Shown piece by piece: positions 1,432-53,040 of a stretch of 64,000 nt of DNA. Position 1 is the stretch's first letter; each line of letters begins with the position of its first letter. This DNA comes from an uncultured delta proteobacterium. Its GTDB lineage: Bacteria; Desulfobacterota; Desulfobacteria; Desulfobacterales; UBA2156. The stretch spans positions 1-64,000 of the forward strand of contig CAVTQK010000021.1 of NCBI GenBank assembly GCA_963736855.1. The letters run 5' to 3'. The notes beneath the pieces are model-generated. The model ran no database searches and was not told where the DNA came from. It was given only the letters and a program-made list of their open reading frames with translations. Position numbers and translations under genes: made by a program.

Positions 1432-2281
1432 GCCCGACGAGGGAGTACTTATACGAAAAGGGTTTTCTTTTTTCCGCGATCCTGAGCGGATCCGTCGTTT
1501 TTTTGATTTTCGCATTCATGCTCATCATGGGGCTTCCTTTGTTTAAGGGAAGTCAGGTCATCTGCCCTTGTCATGAGCGATTGGCTTCCTGCCCAGAGGG
1601 GTTTACGGGATTTATCCGATGATTGTCGCAACCCTTGCCATCTCCTTTTTCAGCCTTGCCCTGGCCTTTCCCTTGAGCCTGGGATGCGCCTTTTTTTCAG
1701 GGTCCATCGCGCCTCCCCGGATAGCGCGAGCTTTTCGAAAAATGATCCAGATCATGACAGGGATTCCGACCGTGGTCTATGGATTTGTCGGAATTTTTTT
1801 ACTCGTGCCGATCGTTCGGGAATGGACCCCCAGCACTTCAGGGTTATGTATTTTCAGTGCTTCCCTGATGCTCTGTATTCTGATCTCGCCAACCCTGATT
1901 CTTTTTTTCACGGACAGCTTGGAAGCCGTCCCGAAATCGTTTCTTGATGCTGCCGATGCACTCGGGGCGACCCGGGTGCAAAAATTGCTGTACGTGATGG
2001 TTCCTCAGGCAAAAAAGGGTATTTTTGCGGGGCTCATCCTTGCCCTGGGTCGGGCACTCGGGGATACGATGGTGGCTTTGATGATTGCCGGAAATGCGGC
2101 CCGGGTTCCGGAATCCCTTTTTGACGCCGCCCGGACCCTTACTGCCCATATCGCACTGGTCATTGCCGCGGAGTATGAAAGCTCCGAGTTCAGGTCCATT
2201 TTCGCCTGTGGATTGGTGCTGTATTCATTTATTGCCCTTATGGTCCTTAGCGTGCGATGGATCGGGATGGCGAAGCGATGA
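1428..2281 (+). CDS. pstC: PstC-like permease with two +1 frameshifts (about 1563 and 1597)
   Basis: GIPTVVYG, ALGATR and GRALGDTM motifs; N-terminal part reads through three successive frames. Confidence 0.8.
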
Positions 2282-2285
2282 TTCT

Positions 2286-3164
2286 ATGAAGATGCTGGAT
2301 CGTTTTGTTGTCGCTTTTTCCTGGATCAGCGCGGTGATTCTTGTGGGGGTCGTATGCACCATTTTCGGTCACATCATCCTGAACGGCGCCGGGACAATAA
2401 AACCGTCTCTGATTTTCGGGGATGTGGCTCCCCTGGATGCTCTGCTTTTGAAGCGGCAGGTTCTCAATGGTCTTTTCCCTGCGATCATCGGAACCCTCCT
2501 TCTGGTCATCATATCGGTGATGTGGGCAGTTCCCTTGGGGCTTGGCACCGGTATTTATCTTTCGGAATATGCAGGAGCGATACAGAAGAAGATCTTTAAC
2601 CTATTTTTCGACATCCTCGCCGGTATTCCATCCATTGTAATCGGGTTGTTCGGATTTGCCCTGGCCATATTTCTCCATAAAAACGTCTCAAATAATATCG
2701 GGCCCTGCCTTCTCATTTCCAGCATGGCCTTGGCCTTTCTGGTTCTGCCATACATCATCCGAACCACACAGGTGGCTCTCGAAGAACTACCCAGGGAGAT
2801 GCGTCTTACCGCATTGGCGCTCGGCGCGACGAGACTGCAAAATATCCGTCATGTACTTTTACCCAGAGCACTTTCCGGTATTACCACGGGGGTGATTCTT
2901 GCCATCGGCCGATGCGCAGAGGACACGGCGGTGATTTTGCTCACCGGTGTCGTAGCGATGGCAGGAATACCGCACTCCTTGATGGGATCTTATGAAGCCC
3001 TTCCTTTCTATATCTATTATATTTCTTCCCAATATACGAGCCCCGAGGAACTGCTTACCGGTTACGGCGCATCCCTCATCTTGTTGGTACTCTGTCTTGG
3101 GCTTTTTTCCACCGCGTTCGTGATTCAAAAACGCCTGACCTACGTTACCCTTTATCGCGCATGA
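2286..3164 (+). CDS. pstA: PstA-like permease
   Basis: GLFPAIIGT, LAGIPSIVIGLFG, ALGAT and GRCAEDTA motifs. Confidence 0.85.
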   Translation: MKMLDRFVVAFSWISAVILVGVVCTIFGHIILNGAGTIKPSLIFGDVAPLDALLLKRQVLNGLFPAIIGTLLLVIISVMWAVPLGLGTGIYLSEYAGAIQKKIFNLFFDILAGIPSIVIGLFGFALAIFLHKNVSNNIGPCLLISSMALAFLVLPYIIRTTQVALEELPREMRLTALALGATRLQNIRHVLLPRALSGITTGVILAIGRCAEDTAVILLTGVVAMAGIPHSLMGSYEALPFYIYYISSQYTSPEELLTGYGASLILLVLCLGLFSTAFVIQKRLTYVTLYRA

Positions 3165-3871
3165 ACCCCGTATCCCACGAAAATACCAAGATCCGAGTCA
3201 CGGATCTATCCTTTTTCTACCGAGAGCGTGAGGTTTTAAAAAAGGTTAATGCCGGATTTGCGGAATCCAAAATCACGGCCCTCATCGGACCCTCCGGAGC
3301 GGGTAAGTCCACGTTTCTGATTACACTCAATCGTCTTTGGGAGTCGATACCTGAAGCGAGAATGACCGGTAAAGTGGAAATCAAGTTCAGCGGCATGTAT
3401 CGGAATATCTATGACAAATCCTTTCCCGTACCCACGCTTCGTCGGCGGGTCGGAATGGTTTTTCAGACTCCGAACCCTTTGCCCATGAGTATTTACAGGA
3501 ATATCGCTTTTCCTCTCAAACTCGCCGGAGAAAAAGACCGGAGAATCATCAGTCAGAAAGTCGAAGAGGCGCTTGACCGGGCGTATCTTTGGGAGGAGGT
3601 CAAGGACCGTCTCAATGAAGATGCCCTCAATCTGTCCGGAGGGCAACAACAACGTCTTTGTATCGCACGGGCTTTGGTGATGGAGCCGGAAGTCCTCCTG
3701 TTGGATGAGCCCACATCTTCCCTGGATGATTCCGCCGGCAGAGTGATCGAAGATCTGATCTTAAGTCTCAAGGAAAAATTGACCATCCTGGTCGTTTCCC
3801 ACTATCTGGAACAAGTGAAAAGGCTTGCGGATAAGAGCATCCGTTTTTCGGAAGGATCGGTTATAAATTGA
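3161..3871 (+). CDS. pstB: PstB-like ABC ATPase
   Basis: Walker A GPSGAGKST, GMVFQTPNP, LSGGQQQRLCIARAL, LLLDEPT. Confidence 0.9.
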   Translation: MNPVSHENTKIRVTDLSFFYREREVLKKVNAGFAESKITALIGPSGAGKSTFLITLNRLWESIPEARMTGKVEIKFSGMYRNIYDKSFPVPTLRRRVGMVFQTPNPLPMSIYRNIAFPLKLAGEKDRRIISQKVEEALDRAYLWEEVKDRLNEDALNLSGGQQQRLCIARALVMEPEVLLLDEPTSSLDDSAGRVIEDLILSLKEKLTILVVSHYLEQVKRLADKSIRFSEGSVIN

Positions 3872-3990
3872 TGGCTTCGTAAAAAGCTTTTGCAAGCGAG
3901 ATTGGAGCATTTTCGGAAAAAGAGATGCGAACGGCTGAGCGTTAATAAATTAGAGAAAAACCAACTCCTGAATCGTTTCCAAAAAAAGTA

Positions 3991-4020
3991 TTGACAGGCC
4001 GTTTCATAAGGAGATAGAAG
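3991..4020 (+). promoter_or_regulatory. Sigma70-like promoter candidate for the Ni/Co operon
   Basis: TTGACA at 3991 after an A-tract; weak -10 (TAGAAG) at 18-bp spacing. Confidence 0.4.
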
Positions 4021-4081
4021 TCCAATAATTTGCATTTGGAAAATGCACGCATTTCCGATTTAAAGATTATTTTCTCTAAAA

Positions 4082-4141
4082 TCAATTGAAGCCACGAAGG
4101 CCTTGAGGTTGGATGCCCAACCGGGAAGTCGTGGTTTTTTT
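4082..4141 (+). promoter_or_regulatory. Attenuator-like RNA element, copy 1
   Basis: TCAATTGAAGCCACGAAGGC...TCGTGG followed by 7 T; outer stem plus inner GGTTGG/CCAACC hairpin. Confidence 0.7.
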
Positions 4142-4193
4142 GTCAAATAATGGGGGTCGAAACCCCGACATACTTATAATCACTGAATCGTTT

Positions 4194-4254
4194 TCAATCG
4201 AGGCCACGAAGGCGCTCCGTGTCAGGAAGACGCGGCACTTCGTGGTTTTTTTTT
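4194..4254 (+). promoter_or_regulatory. Attenuator-like RNA element, copy 2
   Basis: TCAATCGAGGCCACGAAGGC...CTTCGTGG followed by 9 T, directly before the RBS and ATG at 4271. Confidence 0.7.
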
Positions 4255-4270
4255 GGAAAGGAGAGAGAAA

Positions 4271-5041
4271 ATGCGAAATTTTTGGAAAATGGGCATGGTG
4301 TTACTGGCTGCTTGGGTTTTGGCATCTCCTGCCGCAGCACATTTTGGAATGATCATCCCATCGGATTCCATGATCATGCAGGAGGACAATCGAACGGTCA
4401 ATCTGAAGCTTTCCTTTTCCCATCCCTTCGAAGGGGCGGGCATGGAACTGGTAAAGCCTAAACAGTGCTTCGTGGTGGTCAATAAAAAAAAGGAGGATCT
4501 TTCCGGATCCCTCAAACCCACCCAGGTCATGAAACATGCGGCATGGGAAATCAATTTTCCCGTAAAACGCCCCGGCATTTATGCGTTTTATATGGAGCCG
4601 GTGCCTTACTGGGAGCCTGCAGAAGATTGTTTTATCATTCACCACACCAAGACGGTCATCGCCGCCTTCGGAGAAGATGAGGGGTGGGATGAAGAATTGG
4701 GGCTCAAGACCGAGATTGTCCCCCTTTCCAAGCCGTACGGTTTGTATGCCGGAAATGTTTTCCAGGGGATCGTCAAACTGGACGGCAAGCCGGTGCCGTA
4801 CGCAAAAGTGGAGGTGGAATTTTATAACGCCGATCAGAAAGCCAAGGCCCCGACGGAATATATGGTTGCCCAGACTTTAAAAGCGGATTCCAACGGCGTC
4901 TTCACCTATGCCGCCCCAAAAGCAGGATGGTGGGGATTTGCCGCATTGAACAATGCCGATTTCAAACTCAAACACGAAGGCAAGGAAAAGGATGTGGAAT
5001 TAGGTGCGGTGATCTGGATCAAGTTCGAGTCCTGGAAATAA
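4271..5041 (+). CDS. DUF4198 periplasmic protein associated with Ni/Co uptake
   Basis: Signal peptide ending AAA|HFGMIIP; PYWEPAEDCFIIH, EIVPLSKPYGL and GWWGFAAL motifs; context. Confidence 0.85.
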   Translation: MRNFWKMGMVLLAAWVLASPAAAHFGMIIPSDSMIMQEDNRTVNLKLSFSHPFEGAGMELVKPKQCFVVVNKKKEDLSGSLKPTQVMKHAAWEINFPVKRPGIYAFYMEPVPYWEPAEDCFIIHHTKTVIAAFGEDEGWDEELGLKTEIVPLSKPYGLYAGNVFQGIVKLDGKPVPYAKVEVEFYNADQKAKAPTEYMVAQTLKADSNGVFTYAAPKAGWWGFAALNNADFKLKHEGKEKDVELGAVIWIKFESWK

Positions 5042-5093: not shown

Positions 5094-6161
5094 GTGAAAA
5101 AGATAGTCCCCATGCTGGGGTGTTTCTTTTTGATCGGTGTATTGGCGGTTTTTCCTTGCTTCGGACAGGAAAAAACCTTGGAAACCCAAACGGAACAGGA
5201 TAGATGGTATGATCGCTTTGAGTTCAGCGGATTGATCGAAGTGGAAGCAGGGTATGGAACCGTTGACTTCAATGATCCGGATGCGGAAACAGAGGAAACC
5301 AGCGATCTGGATTTGGCCACAGTCGAACTGAATGTGGATGTGAAAATCGTCGATCATGTAAAGGGGCATGTCCTGTTTAAGTATGAAGAAGAGGATCTCT
5401 TTGTGGACGAAGGCTATATTTTATTTACCGGAAGCGAGAATAGACCGTTTTATGTCGTGGCCGGAAAACAATATATCCCTTTTGGTTGCTTCGACAGCCA
5501 TTTCATTTCCGACCCCGTAACCCTGGTCTTGGGAGAAACCAACGAAGGGGCGCTGGTCGGTGGTTATCTATTCGGAGGGGAACGGGTCGATGCCTCGCTG
5601 GGCATATTCAACGGCCGGGTGAATGAAATCGATTCCGACGATGAGATTGATCATTTTGTCGCATCCGTCAAAGTAAAGCCCTTTGAGAACCTGGAATTGG
5701 GGGTTTCTTATGTTTCAAACCTTGCAAGTTCGGATGCATTCTCCGAACAGGTGACCCGCGAAGAGGGCATTTCAAGCTACGTGAGCGGATGGGGCGCATT
5801 TGCATCCTTTTCTTTTTTAGACCGCTTTCGATTGATTGCGGAATACATCGGCGCACTGGATGAGTTCGAAGCCGGCGAAGTTTACAATTCTGCGGATACG
5901 GTGTCACGAAAGCCTGCAGCATGGAATGTCGAACTCGGGGTGACCCTCACCGATACACTGGAAGTCGCCCTCAAGTATGAAGGTTCTACCGACGGCGATG
6001 CAGGAGGGGGTGAGTTTCTGCCGGAGGCCCGGTATGGAGCCGTTATCAATTGGACATTTTTGGAAAAAACCACCTTGGCCCTGGAATATCTGCACGGAGA
6101 GTATGCTGAGGATTTCCAGACGACTGAAACGGTAACTGTGCAACTGGCCGTGGAGTTTTAG
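5094..6161 (+). CDS. Outer-membrane beta-barrel porin, LbtU-like
   Basis: Signal peptide; FSGLIEVEA, LATVEL, GKQYIPFG and SHFISDP motifs; C-terminal QLAVEF (Bam signal). Confidence 0.75.
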   Translation: MKKIVPMLGCFFLIGVLAVFPCFGQEKTLETQTEQDRWYDRFEFSGLIEVEAGYGTVDFNDPDAETEETSDLDLATVELNVDVKIVDHVKGHVLFKYEEEDLFVDEGYILFTGSENRPFYVVAGKQYIPFGCFDSHFISDPVTLVLGETNEGALVGGYLFGGERVDASLGIFNGRVNEIDSDDEIDHFVASVKVKPFENLELGVSYVSNLASSDAFSEQVTREEGISSYVSGWGAFASFSFLDRFRLIAEYIGALDEFEAGEVYNSADTVSRKPAAWNVELGVTLTDTLEVALKYEGSTDGDAGGGEFLPEARYGAVINWTFLEKTTLALEYLHGEYAEDFQTTETVTVQLAVEF

Positions 6162-6183
6162 TTTTTTTATCGATCAATTTCAA

Positions 6184-6240
6184 GTCCTCTGCCCCGATCC
6201 TTGCTGTTCATCTTAAGGGCGAAGGAAGGGGCAGGGGACT
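6184..6240 (+). terminator. GC-rich stem-loop after the porin gene
   Basis: GTCCTCTGCCCC...GGGGCAGGGGAC inverted repeat; no strong U-tract. Confidence 0.4.
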
Positions 6241-6410
6241 TAAAGACGCCAGGAGTGATTGAAAAGAATTCTTGATTTCAGATTGTGCTATCCCTAAAAA
6301 TCGGAACTTCTGAAGGGTTTCCAATATGGTAATTCAGAAAAAGTTTGATTCGGTATTCGAAACGCGCAACATAGATTATAAATTCTAGTCGGATGAGGTA
6401 ACGGAACGTT

Positions 6411-7025
6411 ATGCATATCTCTGAAGGAATCCTATCCGGATCGGTTTTGGCCTCCGGAGCCGCCCTGGCGGCTGTGGGAACCGGTATCGGACTCAAACGA
6501 CTCCACGCAGACCGGATTGCATGGGCCGGGATCTTGTCCGCCTGCTTTTTTGTGGCTTCCCTGATCCACGTACCCATCGGTCCTTCGAGCATCCATCTGA
6601 TATTCAATGGTGTACTAGGTTTGCTTCTGGGATGGGTCGCATTTCCGGCCATACTCGTGGCGCTGATCCTGCAGGCCGTATTTTTTCAATTCGGTGGAAT
6701 CACCACCCTGGGAGTGAATACCGTTTTAATGGCTTTACCGGCGGTAATTTGTTATTTTCTGTTCAAAAACTTCATGGACAAAAGCCCGGCTTGGGCTCTT
6801 CCCGCTGCTTTTGCAGCGGGGGCGCTTTCCGTGTTTTTAAGCGGCATCATCGTCGGTCTTGCCCTGATGATGACCGAGGAAAAATTCTTTGAAGTGACGG
6901 CCCTTGTGATCGGGGCCCATATTCCGGTAATGATCATCGAAGGAATCGTCACCTGCTTTCTGGTGGCGTTTTTAAAAAGGGTGCAGCCCGACCTGTTGCC
7001 GGGACGGCACGAAGCTTCCGAGTGA
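6411..7025 (+). CDS. cbiM: ECF Co/Ni transporter S-component, CbiM/NikM
   Basis: N-terminal MHISEG metal-binding motif; SIHL, FGGITTLG and IIEG. Confidence 0.92.
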   Translation: MHISEGILSGSVLASGAALAAVGTGIGLKRLHADRIAWAGILSACFFVASLIHVPIGPSSIHLIFNGVLGLLLGWVAFPAILVALILQAVFFQFGGITTLGVNTVLMALPAVICYFLFKNFMDKSPAWALPAAFAAGALSVFLSGIIVGLALMMTEEKFFEVTALVIGAHIPVMIIEGIVTCFLVAFLKRVQPDLLPGRHEASE

Positions 7026-7669
7026 TCGGTGTTGCCGCCATGCGAGACAAAGGAAATAGAATCCCCATGAAAATACTTTGCCCGATGCACTGGATTCTTA
7101 TTTTGCCCCTTGTCCTGTTTTCGGCTTCGGCCGCCTATGCCCATCGTGTCACCGTTTTTGCATGGGTGGAAGGGGATCGTGTGCACACTGAAAGCAAATT
7201 CAGCGGCGGTAAATCGGTTGCGGGTGGACAGATTATTGTTTATGATGACCGCTCTAAAGAAAAGCTTTTGGAAGGAACAACCGATGACCAGGGGGGGTTC
7301 ACATTTACAATACCCCGGAAGGTGCGATTGCGTATCGAATTGGTCGCGGGGATGGGACATAAAAATGAATGGATAGTCAAAGAGGAGGAGTTCGGGTTGA
7401 TACCTAAAGGCGATCCGGTTCCCGCGGGTTCTATTCCAGGGGAATCGGCTGCGATTGAAAAAGCACCGCCGGTTTTGGAAATTGAAGGGGTGGTGGAAAA
7501 GATTTTGGACAAAAAATTGGAGCCGGTGATGAAACTGCTGGTGCAGTCCCAGCAAAAAGAGACAACCATCTACGACGTGATGGCGGGAATCGGTTACATC
7601 TTCGGTCTTGTCGGCGTCGGCGCCTATTTTTATTCCAGAAAAAGAAACGATAAATCCGCCGATCATTGA
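7022..7669 (+). CDS. NikL/CbiL-like accessory membrane component; start uncertain
   Basis: Signal peptide AYA|HRVTVFAWVEG, GMGH motif and C-terminal TM (GIGYIFGLVG); lies between cbiM and cbiQ. Confidence 0.7.
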   Translation: MIGVAAMRDKGNRIPMKILCPMHWILILPLVLFSASAAYAHRVTVFAWVEGDRVHTESKFSGGKSVAGGQIIVYDDRSKEKLLEGTTDDQGGFTFTIPRKVRLRIELVAGMGHKNEWIVKEEEFGLIPKGDPVPAGSIPGESAAIEKAPPVLEIEGVVEKILDKKLEPVMKLLVQSQQKETTIYDVMAGIGYIFGLVGVGAYFYSRKRNDKSADH

Positions 7670-8430
7670 TGCGGGAAGAATTTGCCATCGGCGATTCCAG
7701 CCTTCACAGACTGGATCCGCGCCTGAAGATTGTTGCTGGAAGCGCCTTAAGCATTGTGGTCGCTGTTTCTACCCGATTCAGCACACTGGGAGTTGCTATG
7801 GGATTGGCGTTGATCCTCTTAGCCTTTGCCCGTTTACCATACGGCGCCATAGCGCGGCACCTTGTCATGGTGAATGGATTCGTAATCCTTTTTTGGATCA
7901 TCTTGCCCGTTAGCGTGCCCGGAACACCCTGGATGCATATCGGGCCCATCCCTTTAATGCGCGAAGGGCTGGAGCTTGCGGCCCGGCTGACAATAAAATC
8001 CAATGCCATCGTGTTGGCGTTTATCGCCTTGGTTTCCACTTCATCGGTGGTAAGCCTGGGGGGGGGCATGAACCGAGTCCGTCTGCCCGATAAACTCGTT
8101 CATCTGCTTCTTTTGACGTACCGATATCTTTTTGTCATTCAGGAAGAATACGAAAGGCTGAAAAGAGCTGCTGTGGTTCGTGGGTTTATGCCAAAGACGA
8201 ATCTGCACACGTATCGGACGTATGCCTACCTCGTGGCGATCATGTTCATCCGCGCCGCGGCAAGGGCCAACCGGGTCCAGCAGGCCATGCTCTGCCGTGG
8301 ATTTCAGGGAAGATTCTATTCGCTGCAGGAATATGTATTTACACCAAAGGATTGGATGTGGGCAGCGGGGCTCGGTCTGGCAGTGGCGATCATCGGAATC
8401 ATCGAATGGATGCCGGGACCATGGTCATAG
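7666..8430 (+). CDS. cbiQ: ECF T-component CbiQ
   Basis: LHRLDPRLK, TYRYLFV and AMLCRGF motifs. Confidence 0.9.
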   Translation: MMREEFAIGDSSLHRLDPRLKIVAGSALSIVVAVSTRFSTLGVAMGLALILLAFARLPYGAIARHLVMVNGFVILFWIILPVSVPGTPWMHIGPIPLMREGLELAARLTIKSNAIVLAFIALVSTSSVVSLGGGMNRVRLPDKLVHLLLLTYRYLFVIQEEYERLKRAAVVRGFMPKTNLHTYRTYAYLVAIMFIRAAARANRVQQAMLCRGFQGRFYSLQEYVFTPKDWMWAAGLGLAVAIIGIIEWMPGPWS

Positions 8431-9149
8431 AACTGGAAGATATCTGTTTTGCCTACCCCCGCCGGGAGCCGGTTTTGAAGGAGGTCTCTTTCAGGCTTCA
8501 ACCTGGGGAAAAAATCGGTCTCATCGGTCCCAACGGCAGCGGGAAATCGACCCTGTTGCACATCATCATGGGGCTTCTCCAGCCTTCTTCAGGAACAGTC
8601 CGCCTGTTCGGCAGGCAGGTCAGAACTGAAAAGGAATTCCGGGAGGTCAGGACCCGGATCGGGCTTTTATTTCAAAATGCCGATGATCAGCTCTTCAGCC
8701 CTACGGTTCTGGAAGATGTTGCTTTCGGTCTTCTGAACATGGGTATAAAGCCGTCACAAGCCAAACGAGATGCAATCAAAACCCTCGAGGAATTGCACCT
8801 GGAACATATTGCGGACCGGGTGACTCACCATCTTTCCGGAGGGGAAAAAAAACTGGTGGCGCTGGCAACTGTCTTGGTGATGAAGCCCGAGATACTCCTT
8901 CTGGATGAACCGACCACGGGATTGGATGAGGCAACGGATCAACGGATCATCGAAATCCTGAACGGCATTGAGGCGGGCTATGTCATCGTATCTCATGAAT
9001 ACGATTTTTTGGCTCTGACGACACGCACGGTATACTCCTTCAGAGACGGGAAAATCGTCAACAACGGCGATTCCTCTTTGCTTCATAGCCATTACCACAC
9101 ACATCCTGCGGGTATCGTTCAACATTCCCACGCTCGATCTCTGAAATAA
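8421..9149 (+). CDS. cbiO: ECF ATPase CbiO with a His-rich tail
   Basis: GPNGSGKST, FQNADDQLF, LSGGEKK and LLLDEPT. Confidence 0.9.
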   Translation: MVIELEDICFAYPRREPVLKEVSFRLQPGEKIGLIGPNGSGKSTLLHIIMGLLQPSSGTVRLFGRQVRTEKEFREVRTRIGLLFQNADDQLFSPTVLEDVAFGLLNMGIKPSQAKRDAIKTLEELHLEHIADRVTHHLSGGEKKLVALATVLVMKPEILLLDEPTTGLDEATDQRIIEILNGIEAGYVIVSHEYDFLALTTRTVYSFRDGKIVNNGDSSLLHSHYHTHPAGIVQHSHARSLK

Positions 9150-51723: not shown

Positions 51724-53040
51724 CTATTTCTTCCCACGGGGTCTCCTTGCACCGAAAACGCGGTTAAAAATGGCGGGGATATACTTTAAATGATAATCCA
51801 CGTCAAATAGTTCCTCGATTTTTTTCAAAGACAGATACCCTGTGATCCGTTTATCCTTTTGGATCAGACGCTTGAAGTCTTTTTTCTGTTGCCATGCCTT
51901 CATGGCGTTTTCCTGCACCATCCGATAGGCCTCTTCACGCGATGTGCCGGCTTCCACCAGGGCCAGGAGAACCTGCTGGGAAAAGATCAAGCCTCCAAGC
52001 AGATTGAGATTGGCCTTCATCTTTTTTGGATAGACCATCAGATTTCGGATGATGCCGGTCATGCGGTTGAGCATGTAGTCCATCAGGATAGTGCTGTCCG
52101 GTGCGATGATCCGCTCTACAGAAGAGTGGCTGATGTCCCGTTCATGCCATAGACAGATGTTTTCCATGGCTGCCAGGGCATTGGCTCGCAGGATGCGCGC
52201 TAACCCCGCCAGATTCTCCGAACCTACCGGATTTCGTTTGTGAGGCATGGACGAAGAGCCTTTTTGTCCTTTCGAGAAATGTTCTTCGGCTTCGAGAATT
52301 TCCGTGCGCTGGAGGTGCCGGATTTCCACGGACATCTTTTCGATGGAAGCGCCCGTGATGGCAAGGGTGGTGAAGTATTCGGCGCAGCGGTCCCGCTGGA
52401 TGATCTGGGTGGATACAGGGGCCGGCTTCAGCCCGAGCTTCTTGCAGACATAGGCTTCGATCTCGGGGGATGTATTGGCAAATGTTCCGACGGCGCCGGA
52501 TAGTTTGCCGTAAGAGATGCTTTCTATGGCGTTTTTGAATCGCTTTTTGTTGCGGCGCATTTCGTCGTACCACACTGCCAGTTTGAGGCCGAAGGTAATC
52601 GGTTCTGCATGAATCCCGTGGGAGCGCCCCACCATGACGGTGTTTTGATGTTCCAGTGCCCGATCCTTTATGGCTTCCAGGAGCCCATCCATACCCCGGA
52701 GGATAATCTTGCCGGCTTCTTTCAAGAGGAAGGCCAGGCTGGTATCCAGAACGTCGGACGAGGTCAATCCCATGTGGATGTACCGGGCTTCCGGGCCGAT
52801 GTATTCCGCCACATTGGTGGTAAAGGCTATGACATCGTGCTTGGTTTTTTCCTCGATTTCTGCGATCCGTGAAACGGAAAAGGCGGCCTTTTCTTTAATG
52901 GTTTTCAGTGCTTTTTCAGGGATTTTTCCCATCCCGGCCATGGATTCGCAGGCTAAAATCTCCACCTTGAGCCAGATCCGGTACTTATTCTCGTCTGACC
53001 AAAGGTCCCCCATGCTTTTTCGGGTGTATCGCGGAATCAT
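51724..53040 (-). CDS. purB: Adenylosuccinate lyase
   Basis: MIPRY, HDVIAF, GRSHGIHAEP, GSSSMPHKRNP and WHERDISHSS. Confidence 0.97.
   Translation of the reverse strand: MIPRYTRKSMGDLWSDENKYRIWLKVEILACESMAGMGKIPEKALKTIKEKAAFSVSRIAEIEEKTKHDVIAFTTNVAEYIGPEARYIHMGLTSSDVLDTSLAFLLKEAGKIILRGMDGLLEAIKDRALEHQNTVMVGRSHGIHAEPITFGLKLAVWYDEMRRNKKRFKNAIESISYGKLSGAVGTFANTSPEIEAYVCKKLGLKPAPVSTQIIQRDRCAEYFTTLAITGASIEKMSVEIRHLQRTEILEAEEHFSKGQKGSSSMPHKRNPVGSENLAGLARILRANALAAMENICLWHERDISHSSVERIIAPDSTILMDYMLNRMTGIIRNLMVYPKKMKANLNLLGGLIFSQQVLLALVEAGTSREEAYRMVQENAMKAWQQKKDFKRLIQKDKRITGYLSLKKIEELFDVDYHLKYIPAIFNRVFGARRPRGKK

Follow-up and report, generated by a model that had tools for sequence, protein, structure and literature searches.

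The leader of a nickel-uptake operon in an uncultured delta-proteobacterium of the order Desulfobacterales (lineage UBA2156) contains two full copies of one RNA motif, arranged in tandem on the forward strand at positions 4031-4143 and 4152-4256 of a 64,000-nucleotide (nt) stretch of DNA (assembly GCA_963736855.1, contig CAVTQK010000021.1), the whole of which is called the window here. The leader occupies the intergenic region from pstB (3161-3871) to a DUF4198 gene (4271-5041). The motif is an uncatalogued attenuator RNA of the nickel-uptake regulon, real and widespread. For the window leader as a whole the best explanation is factor-dependent antitermination, toward which our judgement inclines by a modest measure; within that explanation, we infer regulated termination, its direction and a protein as the reader. 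An original prediction, made from the letters of this DNA, had proposed an undescribed antitermination system at the site; the uncatalogued and conserved element stands firmly, while regulated antitermination itself stays conditional.

The kinship of the two units is evident in their sequence and in their structure. The 20-mers at 4082-4101 (TCAATTGAAGCCACGAAGGC) and 4194-4213 (TCAATCGAGGCCACGAAGGC), spaced 112 nt apart, are identical at 18 of 20 positions, as had been stated and as comparison of the sequence and its repeats confirmed, and the 3′ parts (4122-4141 and 4233-4252) are 85% identical. Each unit ends, again as described originally, in TCGTGG and a run of T residues (4129-4141 and 4240-4254), with TCGTGG at 4129-4134 followed by seven T (4135-4141) in unit 1 and at 4240-4245 followed by nine (4246-4254) in unit 2. 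The middles of the units are unlike in sequence yet both form hairpins (4107-4122 and 4217-4235), and the terminator that had been proposed for each unit was recovered by folding, at -26.7 kcal/mol (z-score -3.5) for unit 1 and -28.2 kcal/mol (z-score -4.0) for unit 2, energies as good as which were reached by 0/200 shuffles. Both units possess the G+C-rich stem-loop and following U tract by which intrinsic terminators are defined, and that of unit 2 was partly called by a consensus scan. In the organism's own genome the pattern of a 9-nt box (CCACGAAGG) with its terminator occurs at these two sites only. The elements of the leader are, in order:

3991-3996 (+): TTGACA, the -35-like hexamer of the leader's likely promoter, with a weak -10-like TAGAAG 18 nt on
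4031-4047 (+): P1 hairpin of unit 1, UGCAUU-UGGAA-AAUGCA (hairpin finder, -4.8 kcal/mol)
4048-4091 (+): A/U-rich linker of unit 1, containing TCAATTGAAG (sequence and repeat comparison)
4092-4100 (+): CCACGAAGG box of unit 1, 5′ arm of the terminator or, alternatively, mini-hairpin G-CC-[ACGAA]-GG-C (-3.9 kcal/mol)
4088-4138 (+): intrinsic terminator hairpin of unit 1 (fold), with inner hairpin GGUUGG-AUGC-CCAACC at 4107-4122
4135-4141 (+): U tract of unit 1, seven T (sequence)
4153-4166 (+): P1 hairpin of unit 2, GGGGU-CGAA-ACCCC (-8.3 kcal/mol), which aligns with the family P1
4167-4203 (+): linker of unit 2, containing TCAATCGAGG (sequence and repeat comparison)
4204-4212 (+): CCACGAAGG box of unit 2, with alternative mini-hairpin GAG-GCC-[ACGAA]-GGC-g-CUC (-7.6 kcal/mol)
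4200-4249 (+): intrinsic terminator hairpin of unit 2 (fold), with inner hairpin P3, CCGUGUC-AGGAA-GACGCGG, at 4217-4235 (loop C-AGGAA-G)
4246-4254 (+): U tract of unit 2, nine T (sequence), then a Shine-Dalgarno-like GGAGAG

The hexamer at 3991-3996 was left uncalled by a consensus promoter scan of the window; in related loci TTGACA usually lies 35-45 nt upstream of P1. Some boundaries had to be redrawn. The GGGGT-CGAA-ACCCC hairpin, originally placed between the units, is present at 4153-4166 but is P1 of unit 2, and the repeat, although real, is longer than had been proposed, each unit starting with its own 5′ hairpin P1; counterparts of the unit 1 P1 are present in unit 1 of the relatives G004 and G009. 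The TCAATYGAR stretch, which had been counted as part of the motif, lacks conservation across the family, whose members are simply A-rich over the 9 nt that precede the box. Two full units in series were also found by sequence in three genomes of the window's genus and family (G004, G005 and G009), with compensatory changes in the terminator base of unit 1. A further tandem, in G155, is weak (second copy 40.3 bits), and most genomes carry single units.

The wider family emerged from comparisons among relatives. A pattern scan of 61 of these for the box plus terminator, with one mismatch allowed and the reversed pattern as control, gave 81 matches against 10 for the control, part of the 81 being ordinary palindromic terminators. 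In many of the relatives' matches the inner hairpin has the loop C-AUGAA-G or C-AGGAA-G on a stem with compensatory substitutions, and the 100 nt upstream contain, in nearly every case, a hairpin of the type nnGGC-NGAA-GCCnn located 20-60 nt before the box. The family unit comprises P1 (loop C-(N)NGAA-G), an unstructured A/U-rich linker of 20-60 nt that has no conserved sequence, the CCACGAAGG box with its terminator, and the U tract. Across 101 family members the box is nearly invariant and the consensus ends in GUGGYUUUUUUU, and the C-(N)NGAA-G loop type occurs two to three times per unit, in P1, in the box mini-hairpin and, in better-scoring members, in P3. Many contigs of two related genomes (G024 and G056) also bear repeated units of the type CACGAA(A/G)G, for instance CCACGAAGGACACGAAGGACACGAAAA, arranged in arrays; they seem to represent a separate dispersed repeat with a coincidental CACGAAG word.

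A covariance model, R1, was built from an alignment of 24 sequences (A1) with three helices, namely P1, P2 (the terminator base) and P3 (the inner hairpin). At E <= 0.001 it matched 89/151 genomes in a sample of the order (67/113 high-quality genomes, and 70/109 genera), with one to few copies per genome, at nickel-uptake genes. In a sample of the phylum 9/151 genomes were matched, and outside the order 7/146, all seven being genuine-looking by sequence. Within the window, R1 scored unit 2 at 80.7 bits (4151-4254) and unit 1 at 56.8 bits (4034-4143), partly by construction, as both belong to the 24-sequence seed. The 101 R1 matches of at least 44 bits were realigned and fitted to the structure of the model (alignment A3), and in this alignment 93.3% of cells were paired, against 75.9% in shuffled alignments (0/500 of which reached 93.3%) and 30-45% with slid partners; the covariation score was 0.534 against 0.183. 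Double changes, G-U pairs included, were seen at 6/6 pairs of P1 and 5/5 pairs of P3, and the nearly invariant P2 (CCACGAA/UUCGUGG) showed rare double changes in 3/7 pairs. Covariation is thus strong in P1 and P3. The effect is so large, and G-U pairs are so frequent, that a strand-specific element at the RNA level is indicated despite the fitted alignment.

An exact pattern scan, with one genome per species, gave at least 120 stretches, 80 of which were listed. Among the matches listed, most come from Desulfobacterales or Desulfobacteraceae metagenome-assembled genomes (MAGs), and the other labels are Peptococcaceae, Natronincolaceae, Mobilitalea sibirica, Oscillospiraceae, Eubacteriales, a gut Clostridiales MAG, Thermoanaerobacterales, Nitrospira/Nitrospirota, NC10 and Desulfarculaceae. 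Inspection of the 22 listed stretches that are not labelled Desulfobacter-type or delta-proteobacteria showed a clear P1 in about half; several are without P1 and could be chance matches.

The genes that follow the motif are chiefly those of metal uptake. The first open reading frame (ORF) of at least 70 amino acids (aa) within 350 nt downstream was taken for each of the 101 matches; five had none, mostly at contig ends, and window unit 1 was left out as unit 2 follows it, so that 95 proteins were scanned. Metal-uptake components make up 78/95 of these first genes, in agreement with the enrichment before nickel-uptake genes that had been anticipated. DUF4198 proteins account for 58 of the 95, followed by CbiM (8, of which 4 are fused to PDGLE), TonB-dependent receptor/Plug proteins (7), SBP_bac_5 of the NikA type (3), DUF3842 (3), Peripla_BP_2 (2) and outer-membrane barrels (2), and by one each of DUF3450, TrmO_N, FmdE and a weak DUF6802. 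The remaining 8 are without a family, three of them being broken (frameshifted) DUF4198 genes and another being followed by a receptor. Outside the order the motif is followed by DUF4198 with CbiM, SBP_bac_5, OprB with DUF4198, DUF3842, FmdE, and DUF4198 with Plug. In other phyla it is followed by SBP_bac_5, CbiM-PDGLE, DUF3842, FmdE with a zinc finger, TrmO_N, a methyltransferase, ZnuA, ExbB/ExbD and receptors; at a single locus the gene that follows is for an iron alcohol dehydrogenase, which is unrelated, and at a few others it belongs to no family. The motif precedes four kinds of nickel importer, namely the energy-coupling factor systems NikKMLQO/NikMN, NikA-type ABC transporters, TonB-dependent receptors and porins, as well as the nickel-handling genes for DUF3842, FmdE-like and TrmO-like proteins.

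The NikA-type and NikK/NikL components point to nickel as the probable metal. One motif-controlled operon (L164, 7076-10009) adjoins genes for a CobT-like protein (DBI_PRT) and the cobalt chelatase CbiK, a context which hints that some family members may serve cobalt and not nickel. In two genomes (L161, 2455-5740; L162, 7552-10002) a gene with an FGE-sulfatase domain and a large HEAT-repeat protein come after the nik operon.

No prior description of the motif was found in the literature searched, which did not cover most subscription journals or the supplement of Weinberg et al. 2017. Rfam 15 (4227 models, including those for cobalamin, NiCo and guanidine-II) gave no match at gathering score in the whole window. 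At E <= 10 the region 3850-4300 gave three chance matches only, scoring 15-19 bits where the gathering thresholds are 50-59, and 18 related loci from three phyla gave none at E <= 1. The stated unlikeness to B12, NiCo and canonical ANTAR elements is upheld both by the lack of an Rfam match and by loops and a linker that depart from the ANTAR definition. The NiCo-AnGGAG motif, a name said to come from Weinberg and colleagues in 2017, reportedly consists of AnGGAG-loop hairpins at Ni/Co genes in Clostridia, with a loop that resembles A-N-G-A-A-G; if included in Rfam 15, it has no match in the window or in the 18 related loci.

Several known systems share features with the window leader. NiCo (czcD) and cobalamin riboswitches likewise act in cis as leader RNAs and are linked with homeostasis of Ni/Co or with the transport of Co/B12. 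The NiCo riboswitch is built on a four-way junction and turns exporters on, whereas the window motif has two or three small hairpins, stands before importers and matches neither class in Rfam. PyrR, HutP and TRAP are oligomeric ligand-sensing proteins that read repeated short loops or triplets, and their attenuators resemble the window motif in that short recognition elements recur ahead of the terminator or overlap it, although the sequences, the proteins and the signal are all unlike. We know of no nickel-responsive RNA-binding protein that acts by attenuation. Control of nickel uptake is, in textbook biology, the province of NikR. For delta-proteobacterial nik operons the expected control is a NikR operator, GTGTTAC-N13/14-GTAACAC, according to PMC545781. 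NikR_C (PF08753) has no match in the organism's own genome, which is 100% complete, and no NikR box lies near the locus, the only window match to the N13 form with up to three mismatches being one at 52547, at chance level. With neither a NikR gene nor an N13 operator at the locus, NikR-operator control of the window operon was rejected. Within the order NikR_C occurs in 3/151 genomes (G038, G054 and G083), none of which has an R1 match. The window leader has in common with NikR-controlled nikKMLQO/nikMNQO operons the kind of operon and the expected logic, uptake being off when nickel is sufficient, but NikR acts on DNA and the control exerted by the leader would be at the RNA level.

The proposed mechanism turns on two competing fates of the box. 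A promoter just upstream would drive each copy, and by default terminator formation would halt RNA polymerase short of the operon. Under nickel scarcity, a factor acting in trans would recognise the NGAA loops, bind P1 and hold the box in the look-alike mini-hairpin R-CC-[ACGAA]-GG-Y, so that the 5′ arm is unavailable to the terminator and read-through ensues; once loaded with nickel, the factor would release the RNA and termination would resume. With two units in series, termination probabilities would be multiplied and the response made sharper; duplication for tighter control, with lower basal read-through and a steeper response, is plausible. The two to three like loops that a unit presents give it the build of leaders that oligomeric RNA-binding proteins read.

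A factor would be needed because the mini-hairpins (-3.9 and -7.6 kcal/mol in units 1 and 2) are far weaker than the terminators (-26.7 and -28.2 kcal/mol) and cannot win unaided. The GCC-ACGAA-GGC hairpin that had been suggested to block the terminator does have modest comparative support, in that the flanking R..Y pair covaries, but by itself it is too weak against the terminator. At this pair, which flanks CC..GG, the 101 sequences show GC in 42, AU in 29, GU in 16 and no pairing in 13, and a permutation test gave a small excess of contiguous pairs (1.54 against 1.20 +/- 0.07). An extended antiterminator helix of more than 3 bp was rejected, as it has no comparative support.

A candidate for the factor is a CooT-family protein, alone or with DUF3842, as a nickel-responsive RNA-binding antiterminator whose apo form would clamp the NGAA hairpins and whose nickel-loaded form would release them; we put this identification forward tentatively and regard it as possible rather than probable. 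The candidacy of the DUF3842-CooT pair comes from co-occurrence. DUF3842 is found in 120/151 genomes of the order, in 84/89 motif genomes (the five without it being 60-95% complete) and in 36/62 genomes without the motif; the corresponding counts for CooT are 127/151, 86/89 and 41/62. In the phylum sample DUF3842 occurs in 58/151 genomes, and in 9/9 of those with the motif. The two genes are adjacent and on the same strand in 21/21 genomes compared by eye. In the organism's own genome CooT directly follows DUF3842, starts MCEA with Cys2 kept, and is homologous to the solved CooT 6fan. The CooT dimer binds one Ni through Cys2 with a Kd of 9 nM, according to a review (PMC6006190), and the family is labelled 'predicted RNA-binding protein' in several sources. 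A DUF3842(-CooT) copy lies directly behind the motif in four genomes (G030, G157, G159 and G209), and the motif is absent upstream of the pair in the organism's own genome (L288, 954-2123, contig C13), where a 175-aa ORF precedes it. No regulator gene adjoins the motif in the 8 long loci examined, and DUF3842 has no sequence match in the PDB.

A number of points weigh against factor-dependent antitermination with such a reader. Regulated termination at the locus is a prediction, and the fitting of A3 to the structure of the model inflates the pair counts given above. The pairs of the mini-hairpin outward of the third are only about 40% paired and have no covariation support. A direct RNA-ligand switch would be compatible, too, with a motif that ranges over several phyla and keeps its 9-mer almost unchanged. 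As regards the proteins, the 'RNA-binding' label of CooT is a database annotation and not an experiment, and the AlphaFold 2 model of DUF3842 (predicted local distance difference test score, pLDDT, 87.5) is generically Rossmann-like, with Foldseek template modelling (TM) scores of 0.35-0.53 and no RNA-binding relative. Both proteins occur widely in the order (DUF3842 in 79% of genomes, CooT in 84%), and in some genomes they themselves lie behind the motif, so that their co-occurrence with it may mean mere regulon membership, and Fisher tests overstate the association because related genomes are not independent.

The alternative that survives best is a true riboswitch, in which the NGAA loops of P1, box and P3 would dock around Ni2+/Co2+ or a nickel-status molecule with no protein involved. 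The metal riboswitches yybP-ykoY and NiCo bind ions between docked loops, which counts in favour of such a switch, as do the lack of NikR and of any regulator gene beside the operons examined; that at least four phyla share the CCACGAAGG box almost unchanged would also be easier to explain without a lineage-specific protein. The conserved parts of the motif, however, are small hairpin loops repeated two to three times, with no multi-helix junction or conserved internal loop. Uptake genes need to be off in the presence of metal, and the terminator is already about 20 kcal/mol stabler than the sole detectable alternative, so that a riboswitch would lack a ligand-free antiterminator; the opposite, ON logic would be unsuited to importers. 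No pairing of the linker or of P1 with the terminator arms was found by inspection, as distinct from a formal search. A riboswitch is a serious alternative but an unlikely one.

A stand-alone small RNA (sRNA) of about 100-115 nt that acts in trans, perhaps sequestering a protein as CsrB and EutX do, while the operon relies on constitutive read-through or a different promoter, is a good deal less probable again. The promoter-like hexamers, the defined 3′ end and the repeated identical loops do correspond to the layout of protein-sequestering sRNAs, and two tandem units would double the dose. In nearly all cases, nevertheless, the unit is followed within 0-60 nt by the start codon of a nickel-uptake gene that lies on its own strand and whose ribosome-binding site directly adjoins the U tract, and the unit is present in one to few copies per genome, at such genes.

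A variant target of an ANTAR-domain antiterminator is highly improbable. ANTAR leaders combine a recruitment hairpin with a look-alike hairpin overlapping the terminator, their hexaloops have A1 and G4, and a 20-nt linker extension abolishes EutV action, as described in PMC8934654. The logic is the same in the window family, in which the box supplies a second hairpin overlapping the 5′ arm of the terminator, and in the leaders of EutV, NasR and AmiR the small hairpin is likewise too weak alone and needs a dimeric protein. The organism's own genome encodes one GAF-ANTAR protein; it is of 241 aa and adjoins CTP synthase (L167, 1474-2199, contig C15). The loops of the window family, however, are of 4-5 nt (UGAA, CGAA, AUGAA and ACGAA), with G at position 2 or 3, in place of hexaloops, and instead of a short linker there is one of 20-60 nt, with a P1-to-box distance of 29-83 nt. 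The ANTAR domain (PF03861) is found in 59/89 motif genomes, is absent in 30/89 (several of them 94-99% complete) and is present in 28/62 genomes without the motif. This distribution largely refutes an ANTAR reader, and the loops and linker depart from the definition as well. The window family is further distinguished from ANTAR leaders by tetra- and pentaloops, (N)NGAA, closed by C-G, by a third look-alike loop often inside the terminator, by a long variable linker and by a regulon of nickel uptake.

That there is nothing special here, only the terminator of the upstream pst operon with a chance duplicate or dispersed repeat, is scarcely credible, for although pstB ends at 3871 and a terminator after it is expected, the pattern is found at this locus only in the genome and, in different orders and phyla and irrespective of what stands upstream, is conserved with covariation ahead of nickel-uptake genes. 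A dispersed repeat or mobile element was ruled out by the confinement of the pattern to this locus in the genome. Factor-dependent antitermination remains the reading that we prefer for the leader.

Downstream of the leader lies an operon whose gene order, DUF4198-porin-CbiM-NikL-like-CbiQ-ATPase, corroborates the earlier description of the site as the leader of a Ni/Co uptake operon:

4271-5041 (+): DUF4198 periplasmic protein, NikK-like, first gene of the operon (PF10670, E 4.6e-62)
5094-6161 (+): outer-membrane protein, putatively porin-like, no Pfam match (the counterpart in G029 has a weak Porin_4 match)
6411-7025 (+): CbiM/NikM substrate-specific transmembrane component (PF01891, E 8e-57)
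7022-7669 (+): NikL-like membrane-anchored protein, no Pfam match, tentatively named after PMC545781 (same operon position in relatives)
7666-8430 (+): CbiQ/NikQ transmembrane component (PF02361, E 6.2e-37)
8352-9149 (+): CbiO/NikO ABC ATPase, true start probably inside the ORF (PF00005, E 6.2e-37)

The nikKMLQO operon type and the naming of NikK follow PMC545781 and PMC2667541; the window operon is of the same type as the published nikKMLQO and adds the porin. Inside the operon, a 250-nt gap from the porin-like gene to cbiM (6162-6410) is without an R1 or Rfam match. Upstream of the leader, the pstS-like gene is broken into two ORFs that overlap (594-995 and 964-1431), and the pstC/pstA-like ORFs (1619-2281 and 2085-3164) overlap by about 200 nt, an indication that the pst operon (594-1431, 1619-3164) contains frameshifts or was misassembled. 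On another contig of the same genome (C11; L289, 1150-1460), a leader of about 300 nt with TTGACA and the word GGCUGAAG precedes the genome's FmdE-domain gene and has no R1 match.

The importance of the motif lies in the order that carries it, one of sulfate reducers that are heavily nickel-dependent, through hydrogenases and carbon monoxide dehydrogenase/acetyl-CoA synthase (CODH/ACS), and almost without NikR (3/151 genomes). An RNA attenuator would fill this gap and would let the nickel regulon be delineated in many uncultured anaerobes from sequence only, and two unstudied small proteins, CooT and DUF3842, would gain a testable function. The tandem in the window is a natural case for asking whether two attenuators in series steepen the response. 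If the CooT/DUF3842 reader is correct, these two proteins would have a regulatory role beyond CODH maturation, and anaerobes that lack NikR, among the Desulfobacterota, Clostridia and Nitrospirota, would control nickel uptake by protein-RNA attenuation and not by a DNA-binding repressor.

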